Assembly: GCA_043823745.1 (NCBI GenBank)
Contig: JBDRAN010000006.1
Coordinates: 40,176-104,175, forward strand
DNA length: 64,000 nt
Direction of reading: 5' to 3'
From: Candidatus Omnitrophota bacterium
GTDB lineage: Bacteria > Omnitrophota > Gorgyraeia > Duberdicusellales > 4484-171
In this document: piece by piece, positions 5,488 to 53,539 of the stretch
Numbering within the stretch: the first letter of the stretch is position 1
Layout of the letters: each line of letters opens with the position of its first letter
The notes under the pieces: generated by a model
What the model was told of the DNA's origin: nothing
Database searches by the model: none
What the model saw: the letters and a program-made list of their open reading frames with translations, nothing else
Position numbers and translations under genes: made by a program

Positions 5488-5539
5488 CCATCGCTTTTAC
5501 CACAAAGACGGCGGGATCTGTGGCGCAACAAGGAGTATC

Positions 5540-5911
5540 ATGGCTAAAAAAATTCTTTTTATTGAAGACGAACCGGATCAAAGGACTATTGTTGAAGTGC
5601 GTCTTCGAACGGCCGGCTACGACGTGATCACCGCCTGCGACGGCGAAGAAGGGCTCGCGAAGGCCCGCTTGGCGCGGCCTGACCTAATCCTCCTTGATAT
5701 CGTGATTCCCAAGCACGATGGTCTTGAGGTGTGCGCGATACTGAAAGGAGACTCGGGGACAAAGAAAATTCCGATCATCATGCTTACCGCGTACGGAGTT
5801 AACCGCGTGGAGGAAAAAAGTTTTGCTGCGGGTGCCGACGACTGCATTTCTAAACCATATGAACCACAAGAGCTGTTGCAAAAAATCAAATCGCTCCTGG
5901 GGAAACAATAA
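5540..5911 (+). CDS. stand-alone response-regulator receiver (CheY-like)
   Basis: KKILFIEDEP…LILLDIVIPKHDGLEV…KIPIIMLTA receiver signature; RBS AGGAG 5 nt upstream of ATG 5540; the tracked ORF start 5360 is a spurious N-terminal extension. Confidence 0.85.
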   Translation: MAKKILFIEDEPDQRTIVEVRLRTAGYDVITACDGEEGLAKARLARPDLILLDIVIPKHDGLEVCAILKGDSGTKKIPIIMLTAYGVNRVEEKSFAAGADDCISKPYEPQELLQKIKSLLGKQ

Positions 5912-7338: not shown

Positions 7339-9261
7339 ATGATCGCCTTAACCAACATCACGAAAAGCTACGGAGAACGAATCTTGCTCAATAATATCTC
7401 CCTGTCTATTAACCGGGGAGAGAAAATCGGCCTGATCGGCCCCAATGGGGCCGGAAAATCAACACTTTTTTCCATCATACTCAATTCACGCGAAGCATCG
7501 TCCGGCACCATCAACATACAGAAGACGACCCGCATTGGATACCTTCCTCAAGAAGTACATTTTTCATCAAATATAACCGTCCTCGGAGAGCTACTCGAGG
7601 GAAATGAAAAGATCAAAGAGCTCCTTGCGCAAAAAAAAGCTCTTGAGCTCGCGAACCAAGCCGGTGGAGCCCGCTATGGCGATATTCTTCATACCCTTGA
7701 AACGATGGGGTATTTTGCGCTTGAGCACACGGCAAAAAAAATACTCGCGGGCCTAGGATTCAAAGAGACTGATTTTACCCGGCCGGTACAAGCCTTAAGC
7801 GGTGGTTGGAAAATGCGCGTGCTCCTGGCGAAACTGCTCACCTACGATTATGACCTGCTCCTCTTAGACGAACCAACCAACCATCTTGACTTAAGTGCCG
7901 CGCTGTGGTTTAAAGATTACCTTGCGGCCTTTAAGGGTACCTTTGTCATGGTTTCCCATGATCGAGATTTCCTTGACGAGGTAACCGACTACACGCTCAT
8001 TCTCGAAAATGGCGCAATCGTCAAAATCCACGGCAATTACGAGCATTACTTAAAGATTCGCGGGGAACGTAAAATATACCTGGTGAAACAATTCAAGGAA
8101 CAGGAAAAAAAACGTAAACAATTACAGGAGTTTATCGACCGCTTCCATGCCCAACCCAACAAAGCCTCACAGGTGCGCGCGAAACGCAAAGAAATAGAAC
8201 GCATGGAAGAAATTATCGTTCCACCCGATCGTCGAGAAAGCATCCGTAGTTTTCATTTCCCGCAAACGCACAAAAGCGGGCAGAGCGCGATGCGCCTGGC
8301 CAACATCTCAAAAGCCTACGGCAGCATCCAGGTTTATAATAATTTTGATTTCGAAATCACCCGCGGAGAGAAAGCGGTGCTGGTAGGAGAAAACGGCGCC
8401 GGCAAATCAACGCTGCTTAAGATTCTTGCCGGAGTTATTGATATCGATAGCGGCACGCGTGTTGCCGGTTATAATACCGACGTCGGTTACTTTTCCCAAA
8501 CACGCATGGATGTATTAAGCCCGGAGAACACGGTGCTCCAAGAAACGTTTACCTCTGCTCGAGAATATATTTCTGAAGAAAGTATTCGCACTATCCTGGG
8601 AGCGTTTCTTTTTAGCGGTAGCGACGTCGAAAAGAAAGTAAGCGTGCTCTCCGGGGGCGAAAAAAGCAGGCTGATTCTTGCGAAACTCCTAATTCGCCCG
8701 CCTAATCTTCTTTTACTCGATGAGCCAACGACACACCTTGACGTGGACGCGGTGGATGCTCTCATCCAGGCGCTCGCCGGATACGAAGGAACGCTCGTAT
8801 TTATCAGTCACGACATCCACTTTGTGCGCTCGACCGCCACCATGGTCTACGAGGTAAGTTCTGGCCGCGTACGAAAATTCCCCGGTAATTTCGATTATTA
8901 CCGCAGCCAGAAAGACAAAACCCATGTCGTAACGCGCGCCAAACCAGGCAAGCGTACCATCTGGCAGGAAACGTTCGACGAGCTGAAAGCGCGCTCAAAA
9001 CAACGATATCGCACCCCTCAAGAGGAAGAAGAGACAAAGGCTCACAATGCACAATTATCACTCGCCATCAAGGCGCTGCGTAAAGAAAAAGAAAAGCTCG
9101 CCGCCGAGCGAGCCGTCAAGGAACGGATCATTGCCAATAAATTCAGCCATCATGGAGCCAGCGCTAAACAACAATACACCGAGCGTTTACGCGCAATCGA
9201 TGAACGCATGGGGGCGATCGAAGAAGAAATAAAACACATTAAAACAAAATTTATCTCTTGA
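7339..9261 (+). CDS. ABC-F family ATPase (Uup/EttA-like, two ABC domains, no TMD)
   Basis: Two Walker A motifs (GPNGAGKST, GENGAGKST), two LSGG signatures (LSGGWKMR, LSGGEKSR), linker, C-terminal coiled-coil. Confidence 0.85.
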   Translation: MIALTNITKSYGERILLNNISLSINRGEKIGLIGPNGAGKSTLFSIILNSREASSGTINIQKTTRIGYLPQEVHFSSNITVLGELLEGNEKIKELLAQKKALELANQAGGARYGDILHTLETMGYFALEHTAKKILAGLGFKETDFTRPVQALSGGWKMRVLLAKLLTYDYDLLLLDEPTNHLDLSAALWFKDYLAAFKGTFVMVSHDRDFLDEVTDYTLILENGAIVKIHGNYEHYLKIRGERKIYLVKQFKEQEKKRKQLQEFIDRFHAQPNKASQVRAKRKEIERMEEIIVPPDRRESIRSFHFPQTHKSGQSAMRLANISKAYGSIQVYNNFDFEITRGEKAVLVGENGAGKSTLLKILAGVIDIDSGTRVAGYNTDVGYFSQTRMDVLSPENTVLQETFTSAREYISEESIRTILGAFLFSGSDVEKKVSVLSGGEKSRLILAKLLIRPPNLLLLDEPTTHLDVDAVDALIQALAGYEGTLVFISHDIHFVRSTATMVYEVSSGRVRKFPGNFDYYRSQKDKTHVVTRAKPGKRTIWQETFDELKARSKQRYRTPQEEEETKAHNAQLSLAIKALRKEKEKLAAERAVKERIIANKFSHHGASAKQQYTERLRAIDERMGAIEEEIKHIKTKFIS

Positions 9262-20316: not shown

Positions 20317-20880
20317 ATGATGAAGATAGGTATACTCGGCGGAACCTTTAACCCACCGCACATCGGCCATTTGATTCTGGCACAGGAAGTTTACCAGAAG
20401 CTTAGCCTGGATAAGATTTTCTTTATCCCCACCAATATCCCGCCGCATAAAGAAAGCCATAACGTGACGGCACGTGATCGCCTGACTATGGTCAGACGGG
20501 TAATCGGGCGCGATAAGCGCTTTGCGGTGCTTGATCTAGAAATAAAACGAGGTGGGGTATCTTACACCATCGATACGGTCAGGGAACTTAAAAGGCTCTA
20601 TCCGCGCGCCACGTTTTTTCTTATTGTCGGCTCTGATTTAGCGCGTGATTTTCCCACGTGGAAGTATTTTGAAGGGCTTAAAAAAGCGGTGAGCATTGTC
20701 GTGGCAAAACGACGCGCCTATCCGCTTGAGGGAAAAACCAAATTTATTATCGTTGATATCGTACAGATGGGCATTTCATCTTCCTATATAAGAACCTTGA
20801 TAAAAAAGGGTTTTTCGATACAATATCTCGTTACCGAGAACGTCGCACGGTATATAGAGAAACGGAAATTGTATAAATGA
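20317..20880 (+). CDS. nadD: nicotinate-nucleotide adenylyltransferase
   Basis: GILGGTFNPPHIGH (H/T-x-G-H nucleotidyltransferase motif), …ISSSYIR. Confidence 0.85.
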   Translation: MMKIGILGGTFNPPHIGHLILAQEVYQKLSLDKIFFIPTNIPPHKESHNVTARDRLTMVRRVIGRDKRFAVLDLEIKRGGVSYTIDTVRELKRLYPRATFFLIVGSDLARDFPTWKYFEGLKKAVSIVVAKRRAYPLEGKTKFIIVDIVQMGISSSYIRTLIKKGFSIQYLVTENVARYIEKRKLYK

Positions 20881-20917
20881 GGCAGCATCTTTTTCCGAAC
20901 AACGTGAGAGAAAAAGT

Positions 20918-21046
20918 GCGTAGCCGAATTTACCCCGCCCTTTTCTCGGTGGATTTAACGTGCAGCGGTAAAGCATTGGTTAAAAGATAACTTATATTTT
21001 TAAAGTAACTAATTATCCCTCACCAAAAGGGCGGGGTTCAATTCGC
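20918..21046. repeat. IR-bounded ~130-nt promoter-proximal cassette, copy 1 (upstream of PGM/PMM)
   Basis: Left arm gcgtagccgaatttaccccgccctttt (20918-20945); right arm ccaaaagggcggggttcaattcgc (21023-21046); ~75 nt AT-rich core; followed by leader hairpin gtgatttttg…caaaaatcac and CTCATTGAAAAGGAG-ATG. Confidence 0.7.
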
Positions 21047-21105
21047 ACAGTGATTTTTGTGCACTGACGTTTCAAAAATCACGTGCTCATTGAAAAGGAG
21101 AAAAC

Positions 21106-22497
21106 ATGATTAAATTCGGTACTGACGGCTGGCGCGCGGTTATCGCGGAAGATTTTACGTTCGCAAACTTAAAAATTATTTCACAGGCAATCGCTGATTA
21201 TCTTAAAAAACAGCCCGGAAAAAATAAAAAAGTTGTTATCGGATATGATTGCCGCTTTCTTTCCGCTGAGTTCGCAAAAACCGTAGCCCTCGTTCTTGCG
21301 GCAAACAGAATCAAAGCAGTGCTTTCCGATAAACCGATCCCCACTCCCGCGGTCAGCCTTCACGCGCTGCATGGAAAATACGATCTTGGCGTCATGATCA
21401 CCGCCTCACACAACGGAGCCGAGTTTAACGGCCTTAAGATCAAAACAAAGGACGGCGGTGCGGCGGATAAAACGCTCACCGATGCGGTTGAACGCCTGCT
21501 CTATAAGACAAAACCGAAAATCGCGAATGAGGAAGAAGCCCGGAAACAAAAGCTTTTTTCCATACAAGATCTCTCCCAGTTCTATATTGATTTCTTTAAA
21601 ACCTTCGTCGACGTCGGGGCGATAAAGAAACTTAAACTTAACATCTTAATCGACACCATGTACGGCGCGGGAGATCATTTTATCGCTAACGTTTTAGGCG
21701 AATGCGGAATTAACCTGCATTACTTACACAACGAATTTAACCCTTCCTTCGGCGGATTGCACCCTGAACCGATCGAACCGTATTTAGAAGAAATGACGGC
21801 GGCAATGAAAAGCGGAACGTATGATTTAGGGATTGTGCTTGACGGGGACGCCGACCGCATCGCTACCTTTGACAGCAAAGGCACCTATATCAATGCACAA
21901 ATACTCCTTCCGCTCCTGTGCATCCACATGAATAAAAACAGAAATGAAAAGGGGGGTATCGGAAAGACCGTGGTTGGCAGCAACATCATTGATTCGGTCG
22001 CGCTGGCCCTCGGGGTTGCTTGCTACGAGACGCCGGTCGGATTCAAATATATCTCAAGCCTCTTTAAGCAGAATCTTATTTCTGTGGGAGGAGAGGAAGC
22101 CGGCGGCATTGGCTTTCACGGTTATATCCCTGAACGCGATGGCTCAATGAGCGCACTCCTGTTACTTGAAATGCTTGCCTGTGAACAAAAAAGCTTTGAT
22201 GCGCTCCTTGGTGAGCTCTTTCGGAACTACGGCCGCTGGTACTACAGCCGCGCCTCGATACCCGTTAAAAGCGTCAGAAAAAGCGTCAACGACATGAAGT
22301 TGCCGGCAAAACTCCTCGGTAAACCCGTTGAACGCGTCAACACGCTCGACGGAGTTAAGCTGATCACCAAGGATAACTGGCTGATGTTTCGTCAGTCCGG
22401 CACCGAACCGATTGTACGCGTCTACGCGGAAAGTCAGAGCAAAAAAGAAGCGGACGCGCTCCTGGCGCTGGGCAAGAAAATGATCTATGCTCTATGA
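21106..22497 (+). CDS. phosphoglucomutase/phosphomannomutase family protein
   Basis: Active-site loop TASHNGAEFNGLKI, four-domain alpha-D-phosphohexomutase layout; 463 aa. Confidence 0.8.
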   Translation: MIKFGTDGWRAVIAEDFTFANLKIISQAIADYLKKQPGKNKKVVIGYDCRFLSAEFAKTVALVLAANRIKAVLSDKPIPTPAVSLHALHGKYDLGVMITASHNGAEFNGLKIKTKDGGAADKTLTDAVERLLYKTKPKIANEEEARKQKLFSIQDLSQFYIDFFKTFVDVGAIKKLKLNILIDTMYGAGDHFIANVLGECGINLHYLHNEFNPSFGGLHPEPIEPYLEEMTAAMKSGTYDLGIVLDGDADRIATFDSKGTYINAQILLPLLCIHMNKNRNEKGGIGKTVVGSNIIDSVALALGVACYETPVGFKYISSLFKQNLISVGGEEAGGIGFHGYIPERDGSMSALLLLEMLACEQKSFDALLGELFRNYGRWYYSRASIPVKSVRKSVNDMKLPAKLLGKPVERVNTLDGVKLITKDNWLMFRQSGTEPIVRVYAESQSKKEADALLALGKKMIYAL

Positions 22498-23089: not shown

Positions 23090-23118
23090 TTGACAAAGAT
23101 TATAATTTAAGCGATAAT
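23090..23118 (+). promoter_or_regulatory. sigma70-like promoter for rpsA
   Basis: TTGACA (23090-23095), 17-nt spacer, GATAAT (23113-23118). Confidence 0.45.
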
Positions 23119-26501: not shown

Positions 26502-26529
26502 TTGCAATTTGATTTGCCATTGTTATAAT
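26502..26529 (+). promoter_or_regulatory. sigma70-like promoter upstream of first GalT-like gene
   Basis: TTGCAA (26502-26507), 16-nt spacer, TATAAT (26524-26529). Confidence 0.4.
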
Positions 26530-26582: not shown

Positions 26583-27590
26583 ATGCCTCAATTACGTAAA
26601 GACCCTATCTTAGGACGTTGGGTTATCATTGCCACCGAGCGGGCCAAAAGACCAAAAGATTTTAGCCACGCTCGTTCTTCGCCGCCCGAGAAAGAATGCC
26701 CTTTTTGTCGCGGCAAGGAAGCAATGACCCCACCTGAAATTTATTCCGTTAAAGACGCTCGGGGCGAGTGGCGCGTGCGCGTGATCCCGAGTAAAAAACC
26801 CTTTGTCGGAAGCGAGGAAGAACTCTGGAAAAAAGGCAAGGGTCCCTACGACTTTATTAATGCCGTGGGAAACCACGAAGTTATCATCGAAAGCCCCGAT
26901 CACATCGACAATATTGCCGACCTTAATGAAAACCAGATTAAGGATGTTCTTTTCACCTACTGCAAACGCTTTCGCGAAATAGAAAAAGATAATCGCATCA
27001 AGTCAATTCTTGTTTTCAAAAACTACGGGTGGGACGCCGGAGGGGGTCGCGTCAAACATTCGCGTTCTCAGCTCATCTCGACGCCGGTTAATTTAAGACG
27101 CGTAAAAGAAGAGCTTGAGGGCAGCAAACACTACTATGACTCCCATGAACGATGTATCTTCTGCGATCTCATCCAGCAAGAGCTGGCAAGCGGAGAACGC
27201 GTGGTTCTCGACGAAGACGGGTTCATCGTACTCTCGCCCTTTGCGTCACGCTTTCCTTTTGAACTCTGGATACTGCCGAAAAAACATTCACCTGATTTCT
27301 ACAAAATCAGTGAAGATCAAGTCTGGGGCTTGTCACGCGTCCTGAAAAAGACACTTCTTAAAATAAAAATTTTGCTTAACGACCCGCAGTATAATTATGT
27401 TATCCATACCGCTCCGTTTCGCCGGGCGTATCCGGGATACTGGTCAACAATCGAAGAAGATTACCATTGGCATTTTGAGATTACGCCTTATCTAACAAAA
27501 GTAGCCGGTTTTGAATGGGGGAGTGGATTTTATATCTGCCCGACGCTACCGGAAGAAGCAGCGAAGTTTTTGAAAGAAACGAATGTGTAG
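26583..27590 (+). CDS. GalT-family (galactose-1-phosphate uridylyltransferase-like, HIT superfamily) paralog 1; nucleophilic His replaced by Arg (HSRSQ)
   Basis: DPILGRWVIIATERAKRP N-terminus, CPFC zinc knuckle, HEVIIESPDH; active-site pentad reads H-S-R-S-Q instead of H-x-H-x-Q. Confidence 0.7.
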   Translation: MPQLRKDPILGRWVIIATERAKRPKDFSHARSSPPEKECPFCRGKEAMTPPEIYSVKDARGEWRVRVIPSKKPFVGSEEELWKKGKGPYDFINAVGNHEVIIESPDHIDNIADLNENQIKDVLFTYCKRFREIEKDNRIKSILVFKNYGWDAGGGRVKHSRSQLISTPVNLRRVKEELEGSKHYYDSHERCIFCDLIQQELASGERVVLDEDGFIVLSPFASRFPFELWILPKKHSPDFYKISEDQVWGLSRVLKKTLLKIKILLNDPQYNYVIHTAPFRRAYPGYWSTIEEDYHWHFEITPYLTKVAGFEWGSGFYICPTLPEEAAKFLKETNV

Positions 27591-27757
27591 CCTGGCTTCA
27601 AGCTACAAGCCGCAAGCTCTTGGAATCATTACCCAAAGCCTGCAGCCTGTCCCGTTTCCTATAATATTTTATTAAGGTGCGGGACGCCCCGAACCTTAGT
27701 ATAATTATTAAGGGTAACGGGGCTGGAGCGTGCAGCAATAATACTTAATAATAAAAC

Positions 27758-28759
27758 ATGCCTGAACTAAGAAAAGATCCTATTGTTGCCCGCTGGGTCG
27801 TGGTGAATGTGGAAAAGCCGTATGAACCTAGTGATTTCCATGTCGTACCGTTTGTTTGGAAAGGCAAAGACGGTTGTTCGTTTTGCACCAACAATGAGCA
27901 CCTGACGCCACCGGAAGTTGAAGCGATTTCTGAAATCCACCGCGCGCCGAACACGCCGGGATGGAAAGTGCGTGTTGTCCCTAACAAGTTTCCCGCGCTT
28001 AAAATTGAGGGAGCACTCGATAAGCGGGCGCTGGGAATCTATGACATGTCCAACGGCATCGGCGCGCATGAAGTTATTATCGATAATCCTGATCATTTTA
28101 AAACAATCGCCGAACTAAGCACCGTTGACGTTGAATATATCTTAAAAGCGTACCGTTCCCGCTCTCTCGATTTACGACGCGACCGGCGCTTCAAATACTT
28201 GCTTATTTTCAAGAACGTCGGCGTTGAAGCCGGTGCCAGCCTTGAGCACGGTCACTCGCAGCTCATCGCGCTGCCGATGGTTCCGAAAAACGTCAAGGAA
28301 GAGGTCAAGGGCGCCCGACACTACTATGAATACCGTGAGCGTTGCATCTTTTGCGATATGCTTGCCTACGAAGAAGAAAGCGACAAGGGACGCGTGGTCG
28401 CGGAGAACGAGGGTTTTGTCTCGTTCTGCCCGCTCTCAAGCAGATTTTCATTTGAAACCTGGATTGTCCCCAAGCAACATTCAACCGACTATGCCGAAAT
28501 TGACGACAGCCGGGTAAAAGACCTTGCGACAATCTTAAAAGAAACGTTGCTACGCTTAAAGAAAGTCCTGGGGGAACACCCTTATAATTACATTCTGCAC
28601 ACTTCTCCCGTCAATACCGACGCGCATTTTTCGTTCCACTGGCATATTGAGATTATGCCTAAGCTTACACGCGTAGCCGGTTTTGAATGGGGCAGCGGAT
28701 TTTACCTTGTGTTTACTCCGCCCGAAGTAGCCGCGAAACATTTGCGAGAGGTCAAATGA
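27758..28759 (+). CDS. GalT-family nucleotidyltransferase paralog 2 (canonical HGHSQ active site)
   Basis: ~45% identical to paralog 1 by eye; CSFC knuckle, HEVIIDNPDH, canonical EHGHSQLIA. Confidence 0.75.
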   Translation: MPELRKDPIVARWVVVNVEKPYEPSDFHVVPFVWKGKDGCSFCTNNEHLTPPEVEAISEIHRAPNTPGWKVRVVPNKFPALKIEGALDKRALGIYDMSNGIGAHEVIIDNPDHFKTIAELSTVDVEYILKAYRSRSLDLRRDRRFKYLLIFKNVGVEAGASLEHGHSQLIALPMVPKNVKEEVKGARHYYEYRERCIFCDMLAYEEESDKGRVVAENEGFVSFCPLSSRFSFETWIVPKQHSTDYAEIDDSRVKDLATILKETLLRLKKVLGEHPYNYILHTSPVNTDAHFSFHWHIEIMPKLTRVAGFEWGSGFYLVFTPPEVAAKHLREVK

Positions 28760-28795
28760 AATAGCAGTTTTCAAGCCTCGGGCGACGGAAAACTG

Positions 28796-28926
28796 CGTGA
28801 TTGAATTTGACCCCGCTCCTTTGGCAGAAGATTGTGCAGCTATATTATAGAAGTAAGTTAAAGTTACGCATGTAATCAAACGGTTGGATAAAACCTTCGC
28901 CAAAGGGGCGGGGTTTAATTCGTAGA
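28796..28926. repeat. IR-bounded ~130-nt promoter-proximal cassette, copy 2 (upstream of gap)
   Basis: Left arm gcgtgattgaatttgaccccgctcctttggc (28796-28826); right arm ccaaaggggcggggtttaattcgtag (28901-28926); followed by hairpin gtcccgc…gcgggac and CTCATTAAAGGAGG-ATG. Confidence 0.65.
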
Positions 28927-29011
28927 CGTCCCGCATAAAAAGGCGGGACTACAATTTACGTTCGCTCTCATACATTGCTCCGTAAATTGTCTACTCATTA
29001 AAGGAGGTTCT

Positions 29012-30064
29012 ATGGCGGTCAAAGTCGGTATCAATGGGTTTGGAAGAATCGGAAGGATGGTAGGTCGAGCGATCCTTGAACGAAATTCAAAAAACATCGA
29101 ACTTGTAGCAGTTAATGATATTACGGATGCCAAAGCTCTTGCGCATCTTCTCAAATACGACTCGGTCCATGGCCGCTTTCCCGGGGGCGACGTCAAAGTC
29201 GGTACAGGCTCAATTATGGTTAACGGTAAAGAGATAAAAGTACTCGCTAAAAAAGATCCGGGGGAATTGCCGTGGAAAGAGCTTGGCGTTGATATCGTGG
29301 TCGAATCAACAGGGCTTTTTACCATAAAGAATGACGGCGTCAACAAGAAAGGAAAAGAAGTAAAAGGTGCCATCAACCATATTGCCAAGGGCGGCGCAAA
29401 AAAAGTTATTATCTCGGCTCCGGCAGAAGGAGAAGATATCACGATTGTCATGGGTGTTAACGACAATAAATATGACCCCAAGAATCACCATGTGATTTCA
29501 AACGCTTCCTGCACCACCAACTGCCTTGGACCTGTCGCGAAAATTATCAATGATACCTGGGGTATTGAGAAAGGCTTAATGACCACCATACACGCCTACA
29601 CGAACGACCAGCGCGTACAGGACCTTCCGCACTCGGATATGCGCAGAGCCCGTGCGGCAGCAGTGTCGATGATTCCCACCTCAACCGGTGCAGCGAGAGC
29701 TATCGGCCTGGTTATTCCTGAGCTTAAAGGAAAACTGGACGGCTTTGCCATGAGAGTCCCGGTTGTTAATGTCTCGGTAGTTGATCTTTCCTGCACGCTC
29801 AAGAAAGACGTAACGGTAGAAGATATCAACGGAGCACTTAAAACAGCTTCCCAGGGTGCCTTGAAAGACATTCTTGATTATACCGACGAAGATGTTGTTT
29901 CGGTTGACTTTAACCATTACCCGGCTTCATCAACGGTCGATTCCAAAATGACGAAGGTTATCGGCGGTAACTTCGTAAAAGTCCTTGCCTGGTATGATAA
30001 CGAGTGGGGTTATTCCTGCAGAGTAGTAGATTTGATTGAATTAATGGTAAAGAAAGGATTATAA
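29012..30064 (+). CDS. gap: glyceraldehyde-3-phosphate dehydrogenase
   Basis: NGFGRIGR Rossmann motif, catalytic SCTTNCL; 350 aa. Confidence 0.9.
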
Positions 30065-40315: not shown

Positions 40316-41558
40316 TATCGCGGTTTTAAAGGAAATGAAAATTTCGGAATTAAACAAGATGGCCAAAGATATGGACATCAACGGCTTCAGCGGCCTAAAA
40401 AAACAAGAGCTGATTTTTAAGATCCTGCAGGCCAAGGCGGAAAAAGAAGGGCTCATGTTTGGAAACGGAGTCCTTGAAATACTGCCCGAGGGCTTTGGCT
40501 TCCTACGTTCGCCCAACTACAACTATTTACCGTCACCCGATGACATTTATGTTTCTCCCTCGCAAATACGCAAATTCTCTCTGCGCACGGGAGATACGGT
40601 CAGCGGCCAAATACGCCCACCCAAGGAGAACGAAAAATATTTTGCGCTCCTTAAGGTCGAAGCGGTGAACATGGAGCACCCCGAAGAGGCGCGTAACCGG
40701 GTGCTGTTTGACAACTTAACGCCGATTTACCCGAAAGAGCGCCTCATTCTTGAAACGACGCCTGAAGAGCTCTCTACGAGAATCCTGGACCTGCTTTCAC
40801 CGATCGGCAAGGGCCAACGCGGCCTGATCGTCGCGCCTCCCTACAGCGGGAAAACAGTGCTTCTTCAAAAGGTAGCCAATGCTATAATGAAAAATTTCCC
40901 GGAAACAATCCTCATGGTGCTGCTCATTGATGAACGTCCGGAGGAAGTCACGGAAATGAAAACCATGGTCAAGGGTGAAGTTATCAGCTCCACCTTCGAT
41001 GAGCCGGCCCAGCGGCACGTGCAAGTGGCAGAAATTGTACTTGAGAAAGCAAAGCGCCTGGTCGAGCACAAAAAGGATGTGATTATCCTCCTCGATAGCA
41101 TTACACGTCTTGCGCGCGCCTACAATATTGTGGAACCGCACTCGGGACGAATACTTTCCGGCGGAATTGACTCCAACGCCCTTCATAAGCCTAAACGGTT
41201 CTTCGGAGCAGCACGGGCGATGGAAGAAGGGGGGTCCCTTACGATTATCGCGACCTCATTGGTCGACACCGGATCGCGCATGGACGATGTCATTTTTGAG
41301 GAGTTCAAAGGAACCGGCAACATGGAAATTAATATGGATCGCAACATTTTTCAGCGAAGGCTATACCCGTCGATCGATATTAAACGCTCCAACACCCGGC
41401 GCGAAGAACTGCTTATCCATCCTGATGAGCTCCAAAGAATCTGGATCTTACGCAAAGCCCTAAACGAGCTCAGTTCGGCGGAGGCGCTGGAGCTGTTGAT
41501 CGAACGGCTGTCGAAGACTAAAAACAACGTAGAGTTTCTCCTGACGCTGAATAAATAA
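40299..41558 (+). CDS. rho: transcription termination factor Rho
   Basis: N-terminal RNA-binding domain, RecA-like ATPase with Walker A/B, Q- and R-loops; 419 aa. Confidence 0.9.
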
Positions 41559-41585
41559 ATGAAGCAGCCCCGGTGTCATGGCGGG

Positions 41586-41713
41586 GCGTAGCTGAATTTA
41601 CCCCGCCCTTTTGGTCAAAGGTAACGTTCGGCTAAGGTAAAGTTTTGATTTACAAATTCGTAAATTAGTATATATTTTAAGGACTATGGGAACCTCGCCT
41701 TAAAAGGGCGGGG
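41586..41713. repeat. IR-bounded ~130-nt promoter-proximal cassette, copy 3 (upstream of rpmE)
   Basis: Left arm gcgtagctgaatttaccccgcccttttgg (41586-41614), which also forms a local GGCGGGG/CCCCGCC hairpin plus CTTTT that could terminate rho; right arm cttaaaagggcggggttaattcgcg (41689-41713); core has TTGATT-17-(g)TATAT; followed by hairpin gcggacgac…gtcgtccgc and CTCATTAAAGGAGG-ATG. Confidence 0.7.
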
Positions 41714-41801
41714 TTAATTCGCGGACGACAAAAAGCCTACGACTTACGTTCATTCGCGGGCTCATTCCGTAAGTCGTCCGCTCATTAAAGGAGGGTCTAT
41801 C

Positions 41802-42008
41802 ATGAAAGACAAAATTCACCCCAAGTATGAATCTGCCACCATTATGTGCGCATGCGGTAACGTCGTGCACACCCGTTCAACAAAAAAAACGTTGAACGTT
41901 GAAATCTGCTCAAAATGCCATCCCTTTTTTACCGGCAAACACAAATTTGTCGATTCAGAGGGACGAGTAGATAAGTTCATCAAGAAATACGCAAAGAAGA
42001 AATCGTAA
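41802..42008 (+). CDS. rpmE: 50S ribosomal protein L31
   Basis: MKDKIHPKY…CxC…[10 protein letters not shown] zinc ribbon; 68 aa. Confidence 0.85.
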
Positions 42009-53464: not shown

Positions 53465-53539
53465 CGGGGCGTGGCTCAGCCCGGCTAGAGCGCTTGGTTC
53501 GGGACCAAGAGGTCGGTGGTTCAAATCCACTCGCCCCGA
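53465..53539 (+). tRNA. tRNA-Pro (anticodon CGG)
   Basis: Cloverleaf: acceptor CGGGGCG/CGCCCCG, D-stem GCTC/GAGC, anticodon stem CTTGG/CCAAG with loop TTCGGGA, T-arm GGTGG-TTCAAAT-CCACT, discriminator A; CCA not encoded. Confidence 0.85.

Follow-up and report, generated by a model that had tools for sequence, protein, structure and literature searches.

The window analysed here, 64,000 nucleotides (nt) of contig JBDRAN010000006.1 from a Candidatus Omnitrophota bacterium, contains three intergenic cassettes in which a GC-rich inverted repeat frames an AT-rich core. By Pfam, the neighbouring genes are cytidylyltransferase-like followed by PGM/PMM at copy 1, GalT-like followed by GAPDH and PGK at copy 2, and Rho followed by L31 and PrfA at copy 3, so that the original prediction was right about the downstream PGM/PMM, GAPDH and L31 genes and about Rho upstream of copy 3. 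Sequence inspection finds the three copies where they had been placed, and each occupies the entire gap between two co-directional genes. These cassettes are copies of an Omnitrophota repeat family that fills the space from the stop codon of one gene to the ribosome-binding site of the next.

The element consists, in order, of a hairpin at the stop codon (the STOP unit), a central inverted repeat, ACCCCGCCCTTTTGG / CCAAAAGGGCGGGGT, around a variable spacer, and a hairpin at the start of the next gene (the START unit), which is an inverted copy of the STOP hairpin and whose 3' strand, CTCATTNAA, directly precedes GGAGG-ATG. The central module is bounded by inverted arms of 15-22 bp, and the whole element of 230-250 nt is one large imperfect palindrome. 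In the window, the left arms read GAATTT(G)ACCCCGC(C/T)C(C/T)TTT and their inverted complement forms the right arms, AAA(A/G)GGGCGGGGTT(N)AATTCG; with up to two mismatches this motif has 7 matches in the window against 1.17 expected, and 6 of the 7 are the three arm pairs. The repeat originally described as a cassette of ~130 nt is real, but its extent had been set too small, the full element reaching from the stop codon to the Shine-Dalgarno (SD) sequence and ATG. The distance between arms, thought to be nearly constant at 100-102 nt, has measured offsets of 94, 93 and 103 nt, which are similar and not constant. A leader hairpin and a CTCATT translation start context had been noticed after each copy; both are present, but they are parts of a single arm-adjacent hairpin unit of ~57 nt, and the inverted copy of this unit to the left of the left arm had been overlooked. 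The blocks said to be shared by the AT-rich cores are only marginally similar, with identities of 0.60-0.66 against a between-genome mean of 0.53 and a 95th percentile of 0.64.

In all matches, viewed in register, the unit begins in the arm-adjacent TTNAATTCG, and its consensus is TTAATGAGC...GCGAATTAA. The N of GGGGTT-N-AATTCG covaries with the N' of CTCATT-N'-AA, as TTCAAT/ATTGAA, TTTAAT/ATTAAA, TTGAAT/ATTCAA and TTAAAT/ATTTAA, and left of the left arm stands the reverse-complement unit, TAA(A/G)TGA(A/G)G-stem-loop-stem-(C/T)GAA(C/T)TT(G)A. An alignment of 68 unit sequences has 16 consensus pairs, 13 of them with compensatory changes. Two covariance models were built, R1 for the unit plus arm and R2 for the hairpin only; R1 finds exactly six units in the window (E = 1e-10 to 6e-21, with everything else at or below 12.3 bits), and R2 recovers the identical six.

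How widespread is the family? A scan of one genome per species (GTDB) with the exact right-arm pattern returned 106 stretches, 101 of which lie in metagenome-assembled or single-amplified genomes (MAGs or SAGs) of 52 Omnitrophota species, some labelled Planctomycetes or 'bacterium', the other 5 being close to the number expected by chance. The search of related genomes that had been proposed for the cassette therefore finds the same architecture in 52 species-representative genomes, and this is the scope established, not the entire phylum; the contigs carrying these loci come from MAGs and are short, and their open reading frames (ORFs) were called mechanically. In the 106 loci and the window together there are 216 units and 87 pairs with tails inward; among adjacent pairs found with R2, 50 of 55 are tails-inward, 4 are tails-outward and 1 is tandem. 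The distance between paired units is trimodal, at about 27, 78 and 278 nt, and all three window copies belong to the middle class. There are exactly three elements in the 64 kb examined here, and up to 7 fetched contigs of one MAG carry elements. It could be argued that the arm, a GC run followed by T4, looks like half of a terminator, and that the cassettes are chance resemblances or generic GC-rich terminator half-sites. This is hardly credible: the covariance-model E-values reach 1e-21, there are only 6 matches in 64 kb, all of them paired, the identical 20-mer occurs in 52 genomes, and it does not follow most genes.

Read along their GA-rich strand, many units (L010 4702-4758 and L014 4424-4480 among them) have at the apex the sequence YGG-AGC-GNNA-GCG-AAC-R, a mini-hairpin flanked by GA/GAA, and a second tandem GA sits at the base of the unit. 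The apical GA/GAA motif resembles a designed protein- or RNA-recognition motif, but it is kept equally in both orientations. Several known structures were considered and rejected by eye. A tRNA-like T-arm, a hammerhead core (CUGANGA...GAAA) and a k-turn do not fit, the tandem GA being without a CUGA bulge or a 3-nt bulge, and a boxA (GCUCUUUAACAA compared with GCUCAUUAAA) was discarded, since that stretch is paired as one strand of a stem that covaries. A closing helix on the outside, joining STOP head to START tail in a four-way junction, could have 5-6 bp and is rejected because the covarying N positions pair inside each unit and not between units. At the gathering threshold, Rfam matches only a tRNA in the entire window, and by E-value the best matches in copy 3 are chance microRNA or snoRNA models with E = 0.8 or worse.

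The element is strictly oriented with its flanking genes. The STOP unit has the head TAA(A/G)TGA(A/G)G, and the upstream ORF stops at its TAA, position 0, in 28 cases and at its TGA, position 4, in 15; this TAA-N-TGA-R-G base closes the ORF and covers two reading frames with stop codons. In locus L051, prfA runs ten codons into the STOP hairpin and stops at the loop TGA, and the unit therefore offers stop codons in several frames. The START-type unit, beside the downstream gene, ends GCTCATTNAA; the ATG mostly lies 10-15 nt past it, or within 0-4 nt in about a quarter, and the SD core is at offset 0 from the unit end in 33/88 cases and within -2 to +3 in 54/88. There are 39 STOP-to-START pairs and no genuine divergent or convergent pair, and three apparent exceptions are taken as ORF-calling errors because each has one STOP-like and one START-like head.

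Locus L069 carries a complete element in a perfect 171-nt tandem duplication (5528-5863, minus strand) with boundaries TAAGTGAGG...AAAGGAGG. It is due to a recent second insertion or duplication, or else it is an artefact of assembly; judged by these boundaries, the stretch between stop codon and SD behaves as one discrete unit. The boundaries can also be given as TAAGTGAGG...CTCATTAAAGGAGG, with TA shared at the junctions, and L048 (6742-7051) has a similar, partial duplication of 162 nt. START-type hairpins also stand directly before rplI, metG and other genes (L077 546-607, L070 3674-3728, L032 1933-1992, L059 437-510) with a central repeat that is weak, short or atypical and with no recognisable STOP partner; they are possibly decayed elements or stand-alone leader hairpins.

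The long class of spacers gives the centre of the element an identity. All 9 of 9 long spacers hold a sense ORF of 82-96 codons that starts ~15 nt past the left arm and ends ~10 nt short of the right arm, and the product of ~85 amino acids has a GIY-YIG domain that passes the gathering cut-off of Pfam PF01541 (E = 4e-15 and 1.9e-17). Its nearest solved structures are the UPF0213 proteins BH0048 and EF2693, and the UPF0213 family is grouped with Slx1, YhbQ and YazA (PMC7017083). The NCBIfam model for group I intron endonucleases scores 24 bits against a cut-off of 56. The MAG JBDRHJ01 has four contigs with GIY-YIG copies that are ~93-97% identical through the ORF and arm and diverge abruptly after ...GGGGTTAATTCG, and 3 of the 4 contigs end within the GIY-YIG gene, as repeats do in assemblies. 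A protein search gave 113 clusters of this GIY-YIG subfamily, mostly from Omnitrophota with some from Cytophagales and Elusimicrobia. In a Cytophagales contig the gene lies between the two halves of a perfect inverted repeat of 20 bp, CCCCGCCCTTTTGATTATTA / TAATAATCAAAAGGGCGGGG, and in an Elusimicrobia contig it adjoins CCCCGCCCTTTTGAGTCTG...CAGACTCAAAAGGGCGGGG between tRNA genes; the arms of L113 carry a compensated change, CCCAGCCC/GGGCTGGG, and none is present at a 46%-identical homologue. In at least three phyla, then, a UPF0213-like GIY-YIG gene for 85 amino acids has the CCCCGCCCTTTTG arms as its cognate inverted repeats. The arms occur with the ORF, in about 10% of pairs, and, at other loci, without it, the shortest form being the near-contiguous palindrome CCCCGCCCTTTTGCAAAAAGGGCGGGG in L009. 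The hairpin model has no match in the Cytophagales and Elusimicrobia loci L107 and L108, so the outer hairpins may be peculiar to Omnitrophota. In L107 (2800-3440; Elusimicrobia MAG contig JAPLKI010000025.1), the GIY-YIG gene and arm palindrome lie between two tRNA-like sequences, a degenerate additional right arm comes straight after the ORF (CAGACTCAAAAGG-agtttcgcgat-GGGGCATAG), and CATAG stands on both sides of the intact palindrome, which is maybe a 5-bp duplication.

The outer hairpins and the centre are separable layers of the element. The hairpins also enclose other central inverted repeats, namely CCCCCACACCAATTG, CCCCCACCACTTTC, CCCTTGACATTTTG, ACCCAGCACTTATTTTAC and TCCCG, and 29 of 161 units have such centres in a sample biased to CCCCGCCC; every doublet has a central palindrome, the smallest of 26 nt. 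Loci with other centres include L076 5668-5843, L099 ~7735-7900, L068 6780-6860, L050 4013-4150, L034, L014 3075-3212 and 5408-5560, and L036 7813-7990, and one of them contains a TTGACA hexamer. Spacers within the genomes PMCS01 and VGKH01 are 0.71-0.83 identical, compared with the between-genome values given above (Mann-Whitney p = 0.002), while the flanking hairpins and genes of these spacer families differ; the orthologous spacers before gap in the window and in L038 are only 0.52 identical. The within-genome families with differing flanks indicate that the centre turns over, or is homogenised, faster than the hairpins.

The element is gained and lost. Window proteins were compared with the loci by tblastn, and occupancy differs between syntenic sites, which answers positively the question of presence/absence polymorphism raised by the original prediction. 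The rho-rpmE junction is filled in the window and L026 and empty in L051, rpmE-prfA is filled in L072 and empty in the window, L026 and L051, and prfA-prmC is filled in L051 and empty in the window, where the genes overlap. Similarly, galT-gap is filled in the window and in L038, whose source is closely related to the organism of the window (GAPDH identity 89%), and empty in L052; the junction of gap with the next gene is filled in L052 and empty in the window and L038; and the junction of w35649 with glgA is filled in L074 and empty in the window. A conserved sequence of 230 nt cannot arise independently at different junctions, and the copies must therefore have moved or been copied. At the empty rho-rpmE junction of L051 (1030-1060) there is a 20-nt gap, TAATGAGAGGAG...ATG, of the form TAATGAG-AGGAG-N7-ATG, in which the stop codon is followed by TGAG as in the STOP head; this could be the footprint of a lost element or a preferred insertion sequence. 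The sequences flanking the element are inverted (GAATT / AATTC; TAA..TTA) and not direct, and the TA microhomology at the tandem copy in L069 is not general. The suggestion of a MITE-like element (miniature inverted-repeat transposable element) is thus upheld as to gain and loss, many copies and an ORF-bearing version, but the arms, taken for its termini, are the inner repeat of a larger element, and no target-site duplication was found. An analogy with integron attC sites was rejected, the flanking genes being core housekeeping genes in conserved synteny.

Could the cassette instead be a promoter, bracketed by two arm sites for a dimeric or looping regulator of a glycolysis and translation regulon, as had also been proposed? 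In favour of this, the spacers are rich in AT, the two arms form an inverted pair whose spacing is roughly fixed, and two window spacers have promoter-like matches of 10/12, TTGGCA-16-TATTAT in copy 2 (28821-28848, overlapping the left-arm tail) and TTTACA-16-TATATT in copy 3, so that those two spacers specifically may contain a promoter. Across the family, however, sigma-70-like sites counted by one consensus rule and compared with shuffles are not enriched: there are 0/38 in the sense direction in the short spacers (~27 nt), which make up half of the family, and 6/31 in the mid-size spacers, against 2 antisense and 4.5 +/- 2.0 in shuffles. No positional -35/-10 signal is found, spacer positions carrying less than 0.7 bit outside the arm extensions, and a fixed promoter geometry in the short spacers, with a -35 in TTTTGGCN and a -10 before CGCCAAAA, was abandoned for the same lack of positional information and of matches. 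The spacers come in three sizes, of which the largest holds an ORF, and in other phyla these arms flank a nuclease gene. Tabulated as had been suggested, the downstream genes are heterogeneous housekeeping genes and form no glycolysis or translation regulon: they encode L31 (x2), GAPDH (x2), RpoA (x2), ACP (x4), L7/L12, L9, L13, L18, L20, L22, L27, L32, DnaK, GyrA, ClpC, ArgG/H, PrfA, and many enzymes and membrane proteins, most of them named by eye from their N-termini, with Pfam support for the window genes only. The element is not established as a promoter, and a promoter module for such a regulon is very improbable. The best sigma-70-like matches of the 20-30 kb stretch lie in element-free gaps, at 23090-23118 (TTGACA-17-GATAAT, 11/12) and 26502-26529 (TTGCAA-16-TATAAT with an extended TG).

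With regard to termination, the helix between the arms closes with GGGG, after which comes UU(N)AAUUCG, where 4-5 of the first 8 bases are U. In a scan with the terminator consensus, the sole feature flagged is copy 2's local hairpin, and terminator-like sites in the region are not above shuffles. The GGCGGGG...CCCCGCC hairpin after rho is particular to copy 3, for which the proposed combination of terminator and promoter into an insulator is a possible reading of the sequence.

The RNA that would be read through each window copy is predicted to form three helices, one in the STOP hairpin, one between the arms and one in the START hairpin, with fold z-scores over the window copies of -4.8, -5.2 and -8.3 (copy 1, -5.2). 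The arm-to-arm pairing that had been put forward for folding is thus predicted in all three copies, and the helix could be extended to ~22 bp via GAATTTA/TNAATTC at the cost of the unit base stems. What the stems themselves record is less characteristic of RNA. In the model-fitted alignment 95% of stem cells are Watson-Crick, and G-T and A-C mismatches number 8 and 13 of 880 cells in START units and 10 and 7 of 720 cells in STOP units, that is, wobble pairs are ~1% and favoured on neither strand; such an alignment leans to the modelled pairs, but the comparison of G-T with A-C is symmetric under that bias. The START unit also keeps the complement of the unpaired GA/GAA motifs of the STOP unit, which appear as UC/UUC in the sense RNA. 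Whatever part the RNA may play, the rare, symmetric wobble and the retained complements point to stems that are maintained as DNA or on both strands. A minimum-free-energy strand test favoured the GA-rich strand in both unit types and was set aside, as it reflects the energy bonuses of GA mismatches and GNRA-like loops.

These observations bear directly on the rival view that the element is an RNA punctuation module selected by the host, with a hairpin for the 3' end, a central terminator or RNase III helix that at times encloses a promoter, and a leader hairpin that offers the SD, that its copies have spread because they are useful, and that the GIY-YIG gene is only a parasite of its conserved centre. 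Much in the data agrees with this: the invariant orientation and exact stop-codon and SD register, retention at orthologous gap and rpmE sites across species while the spacer diverges, downstream genes rich in ribosomal proteins, ACP, RpoA, DnaK and GAPDH, the strong predicted three-helix fold, UU(N)AAUU after a GC stem in the sense direction only, and START hairpins that also stand alone before genes. However, G-U pairs no commoner than A-C on either strand are unlike the result of selection on RNA only, and mirrored GA/GAA motifs would be unneeded for an RNA function. The arm sequence itself is conserved, not just its pairing, and it moves into other phyla together with the GIY-YIG gene; presence at given junctions is patchy among relatives, and canonical terminators and promoters are not enriched. 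On this evidence we consider host-selected punctuation as the whole explanation rather unlikely.

The reading that we favour, at a probability of about 0.6 for the statement as a whole, is that the cassettes belong to a palindromic intergenic repeat which is mobile and has at its centre the site, or inverted repeat, of a GIY-YIG gene of the homing type. Its parts differ in strength: a mobile palindromic repeat family with GIY-YIG-linked arms is highly probable, whereas a homing mechanism has somewhat less than an even chance. The GIY-YIG protein would cut at or near the arm palindrome, or at a cruciform or hairpin extruded from the arms, a form of recognition proposed because of the kinship with Slx1 and UPF0213. 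Repair from another copy would then spread and homogenise the central module of arms, spacer and ORF, with co-conversion of the flanks. Homing with co-conversion would explain why a 20-nt arm is nearly invariant in genomes of 35-65% GC, and also the within-genome spacer families and the sharp boundary of similarity at the arm. The three copies in the window would be ORF-less targets or derivatives. Since the element is transcribed with its neighbours, has stop codons at one end and has the SD just outside the last helix, the three hairpins would in addition probably punctuate the transcript between cistrons. In that role, the GC arm helix of 15-22 bp, with UUNAAUU after it, could serve as a terminator, an attenuator or an RNase III-type site, and the flanking hairpins as structures of the 3' and 5' mRNA ends that leave the SD exposed; such effects on expression are plausible.

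Several points weigh against the favoured reading. There is no GIY-YIG gene in the 64-kb window, the GIY-YIG product has a catalytic domain only, without a DNA-binding domain, and we know of no GIY-YIG protein that acts as a transposase. The hairpins surround at least five other centres without a known ORF, and for this reason the GIY-YIG gene cannot explain the hairpin layer. No target-site duplication and no clear rule for empty sites could be found among the few empty sites available. By nhmmer against shuffles, no homology can be detected between the short and mid-size spacers and the inside of the element that bears the ORF; an apparent AATAGTTTA similarity that had suggested internal-deletion derivatives finds no support in the same comparison, and the two spacer classes are therefore not demonstrable as deletion derivatives. 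All loci were fetched through the CCCCGCCC arm, which biases both the proportions of arm families and any phylum-wide scope. Finally, strict orientation, the stop and SD register, and the retention of the element at orthologous sites, before gap (window and L038) and before rpmE (window and L026), are arguments for selection at the level of the host as well.

The favoured reading can be extended to a two-layer system in which a minimal selfish, structure-selective GIY-YIG nuclease of 85 amino acids homes into the central hairpin of portable intergenic regions, an idea that is tentative and, on balance, somewhat unlikely. The nuclease gene would be bounded by a 16-20-bp palindrome, the nuclease would cut this palindrome or its cruciform, and ectopic repair would copy the centre between loci with co-conversion of the arms, holding a 20-mer almost constant over dozens of species and taking it into other phyla. 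The complete element could be inserted or removed between any two co-directional genes, rewiring operon boundaries. As a bolder corollary, transcription units bounded by two elements may start with AAAAGGGCGGGG and end with CCCCGCCCUUUU, that is, as mRNAs with complementary 5' and 3' termini.

Positions, sequences and model scores of the repeat elements in the 64-kb window (R1, covariance model of unit plus arm; R2, of hairpin only)
Feature	Positions	Strand	Sequence	Score	Remarks
Left arms, copies 1-3	20933-20940, 28811-28818, 41601-41608		CCCCGC(C/T)C		
Right arms, copies 1-3	21029-21036, 28906-28913, 41706-41713		GGGCGGGG		
Element span, copy 1	upstream stop TGA 20878-80 to ATG 21106				
Element span, copy 2	upstream stop TGA 28757-59 to ATG 29012				
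Element span, copy 3	upstream stop TAA 41556-58 to ATG 41802				
Copy 1 STOP-type unit	20874..20932	+	TAAATGAGG...CCGAATTTA	R1 57.9 bits, R2 47.2 bits	base encloses TGA 20878-20880 of the upstream cytidylyltransferase-like gene
Copy 1 central module	20933..21036	.	left arm CCCCGCCCTTTT (20933-20944), AT-rich spacer, right arm AAAAGGGCGGGG (21025-21036)		spacer of mid-size class
Copy 1 START-type unit	21037..21094	+	TTCAATTCG...CTCATTGAA	R1 79.4 bits (minus-strand match), R2 68.1 bits	inverted copy of the STOP type; then AAGGAG 21095-21100 and PGM/PMM ATG at 21106
Copy 2 STOP-type unit	28753..28810	+	TCAAATGAAAT...TGAATTTGA	R1 54.0 bits, R2 45.3 bits	TGA of the GalT-like gene at 28757-28759
Copy 2 central module	28811..28913	.	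left arm CCCCGCTCCTTTGG, spacer, right arm CCAAAGGGGCGGGG		
Copy 2 START-type unit	28914..29002	+	TTTAATTCG TAGACG[tcccgc..gcggga]CTACAATTTACG...CGTAAATTGTCTA CTCATTAAA	R1 42.4 bits	additional side hairpin; then GGAGG 29003-29007 and GAPDH ATG at 29012
Copy 3 STOP-type unit	41556..41600	+	TAAATGAAGC AGCCCCG..CGGGGCGT AGCTGAATTTA	R1 47.0 bits, R2 28.0 bits	upper stem GC-rich, atypically short; rho stop TAA at 41556-41558
Copy 3 central module	41601..41713	.	left arm CCCCGCCCTTTTGG, 87-nt AT-rich spacer, right arm AAAAGGGCGGGG		
Copy 3 START-type unit	41714..41789	+	TTAATTCG CGGACG...ACGACTTACG...CGTAAGTCGTCCG CTCATTAAA	R1 50.9 bits, R2 31.6 bits	then GGAGG 41790-41794 and rpmE (L31) ATG at 41802

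Almost all long ORFs of the window (1-64000) are on the plus strand, the AT skew is positive everywhere (0.04-0.27), and there is one tRNA, at 53465-53539. The gene orders rho-rpmE-prfA-prmC and gap-pgk-tpi are Firmicute-like, yet the relatives are Omnitrophota, and the GAPDH of the window is identical to that of GCA_018827245.1. Tandem GalT/HIT-like paralogues of 335 and 333 amino acids (26583-28759) precede copy 2, and the same pair stands before gap in L038 and L052.

What known elements does the family resemble? REP, BIME and REPIN-RAYT systems of Enterobacteria and Pseudomonas are likewise short imperfect palindromes between genes, paired in inverted orientation on either side of a spacer, present in tens to hundreds of copies per genome and persisting for long in a lineage, with a repeat-flanked nuclease-type gene and the ability to fold as separate hairpins or one long one. 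The elements could accordingly be REPIN- or BIME-like doublets that a single-copy, unlinked transposase, such as a RAYT-type HUH enzyme, moves in trans, with the GIY-YIG gene and its arms an independent element inserted at the centre of the doublet. Two inverted imperfect palindromes with a spacer match REPINs (PMC3116915, PMC3337134), the hairpin units occur with several unrelated central repeats, and the hairpins are locus-specific and look older, the central modules being young within-genome families. REPs, however, have a GTAG or CGTC tetranucleotide at one end of a 20-40-nt palindrome (PMC3733652), a tag that is absent from the Omnitrophota unit of ~57 nt with its conserved internal GA motifs. 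The Omnitrophota element, in addition, always has a central inverted repeat and, unlike REPINs, is bound in position to the stop codon and the SD of its co-directional genes. The gene here is GIY-YIG (UPF0213-like) and not HUH/Y1 as in RAYTs, lies between the units and is multi-copy in at least one genome. It is the only ORF found inside elements, HUH genes not having been systematically searched for, and no RAYT or other transposase was seen beside elements in ~700 kb of loci, again without a systematic search. We therefore hold mobilisation by an unlinked transposase to be improbable.

Correia elements of Neisseria and the ERIC, RUP and RPE MITEs are, like the present element, non-coding, 100-250 nt long, intergenic and co-transcribed, with inverted repeats; they can supply expression signals and RNA hairpins and show presence/absence polymorphism between relatives. 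Unlike them, the Omnitrophota element has three hairpins in one fixed gene orientation, with stop codons at one end and an SD at the other, no sequence similarity to them, no demonstrable duplication of TA or any other target, and a putative partner enzyme that is GIY-YIG and not a DDE transposase. The GIY-YIG homing genes I-TevI and Seg share the domain, a place within sequence conserved to either side, nearly identical copies in several positions, forms with and without the ORF of what may be one site, and homogenised flanks consistent with co-conversion. Unlike I-TevI and Seg, the gene described here encodes 82-96 amino acids with no separate DNA-binding domain, its UPF0213 relatives are of unknown function, and its putative target is a multi-copy intergenic palindrome instead of a unique conserved gene. 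Because at least one defining feature of each fails, the element should not be filed as a REPIN, a Correia-type MITE or a homing gene. By analogy only, it is reminiscent of the RNase III stems of the phage T7 early region and of rRNA operons, with a long-range intercistronic helix of 15-22 bp flanked by hairpins, where cleavage would leave hairpins capping the upstream 3' end and the downstream 5' end. RNase III sites need no conserved sequence, and the stems of the element are without the G-U pairs expected of helices selected as RNA. In the literature searched, no description was found of Omnitrophota repeats or GIY-YIG genes of this kind, of GIY-YIG genes with REPINs or MITEs, or of the arm sequence, and the repeat family is apparently undescribed.

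Omnitrophota are uncultured, ultra-small and widespread bacteria, and to our knowledge almost nothing is known about gene punctuation and genome rearrangement in this phylum, which is without a genetic system. If the favoured reading is true, the sequence signature and covariance models would mark gene and operon boundaries in dozens of species, which would aid annotation, and the repeats would explain breaks between contigs in MAGs. It would also tie a UPF0213/YhbQ-type GIY-YIG protein, of a kind for which structures have been solved, to a specific conserved DNA palindrome, making its activity directly testable. A nuclease gene with a 16-20-bp inverted repeat, ~300 bp in total, would possibly be a new minimal mobile unit, and a repeat that brings its own stop codons and abuts a ribosome-binding site would be a natural "portable intergenic region", of interest for the evolution of operons and for insulators in synthetic biology.

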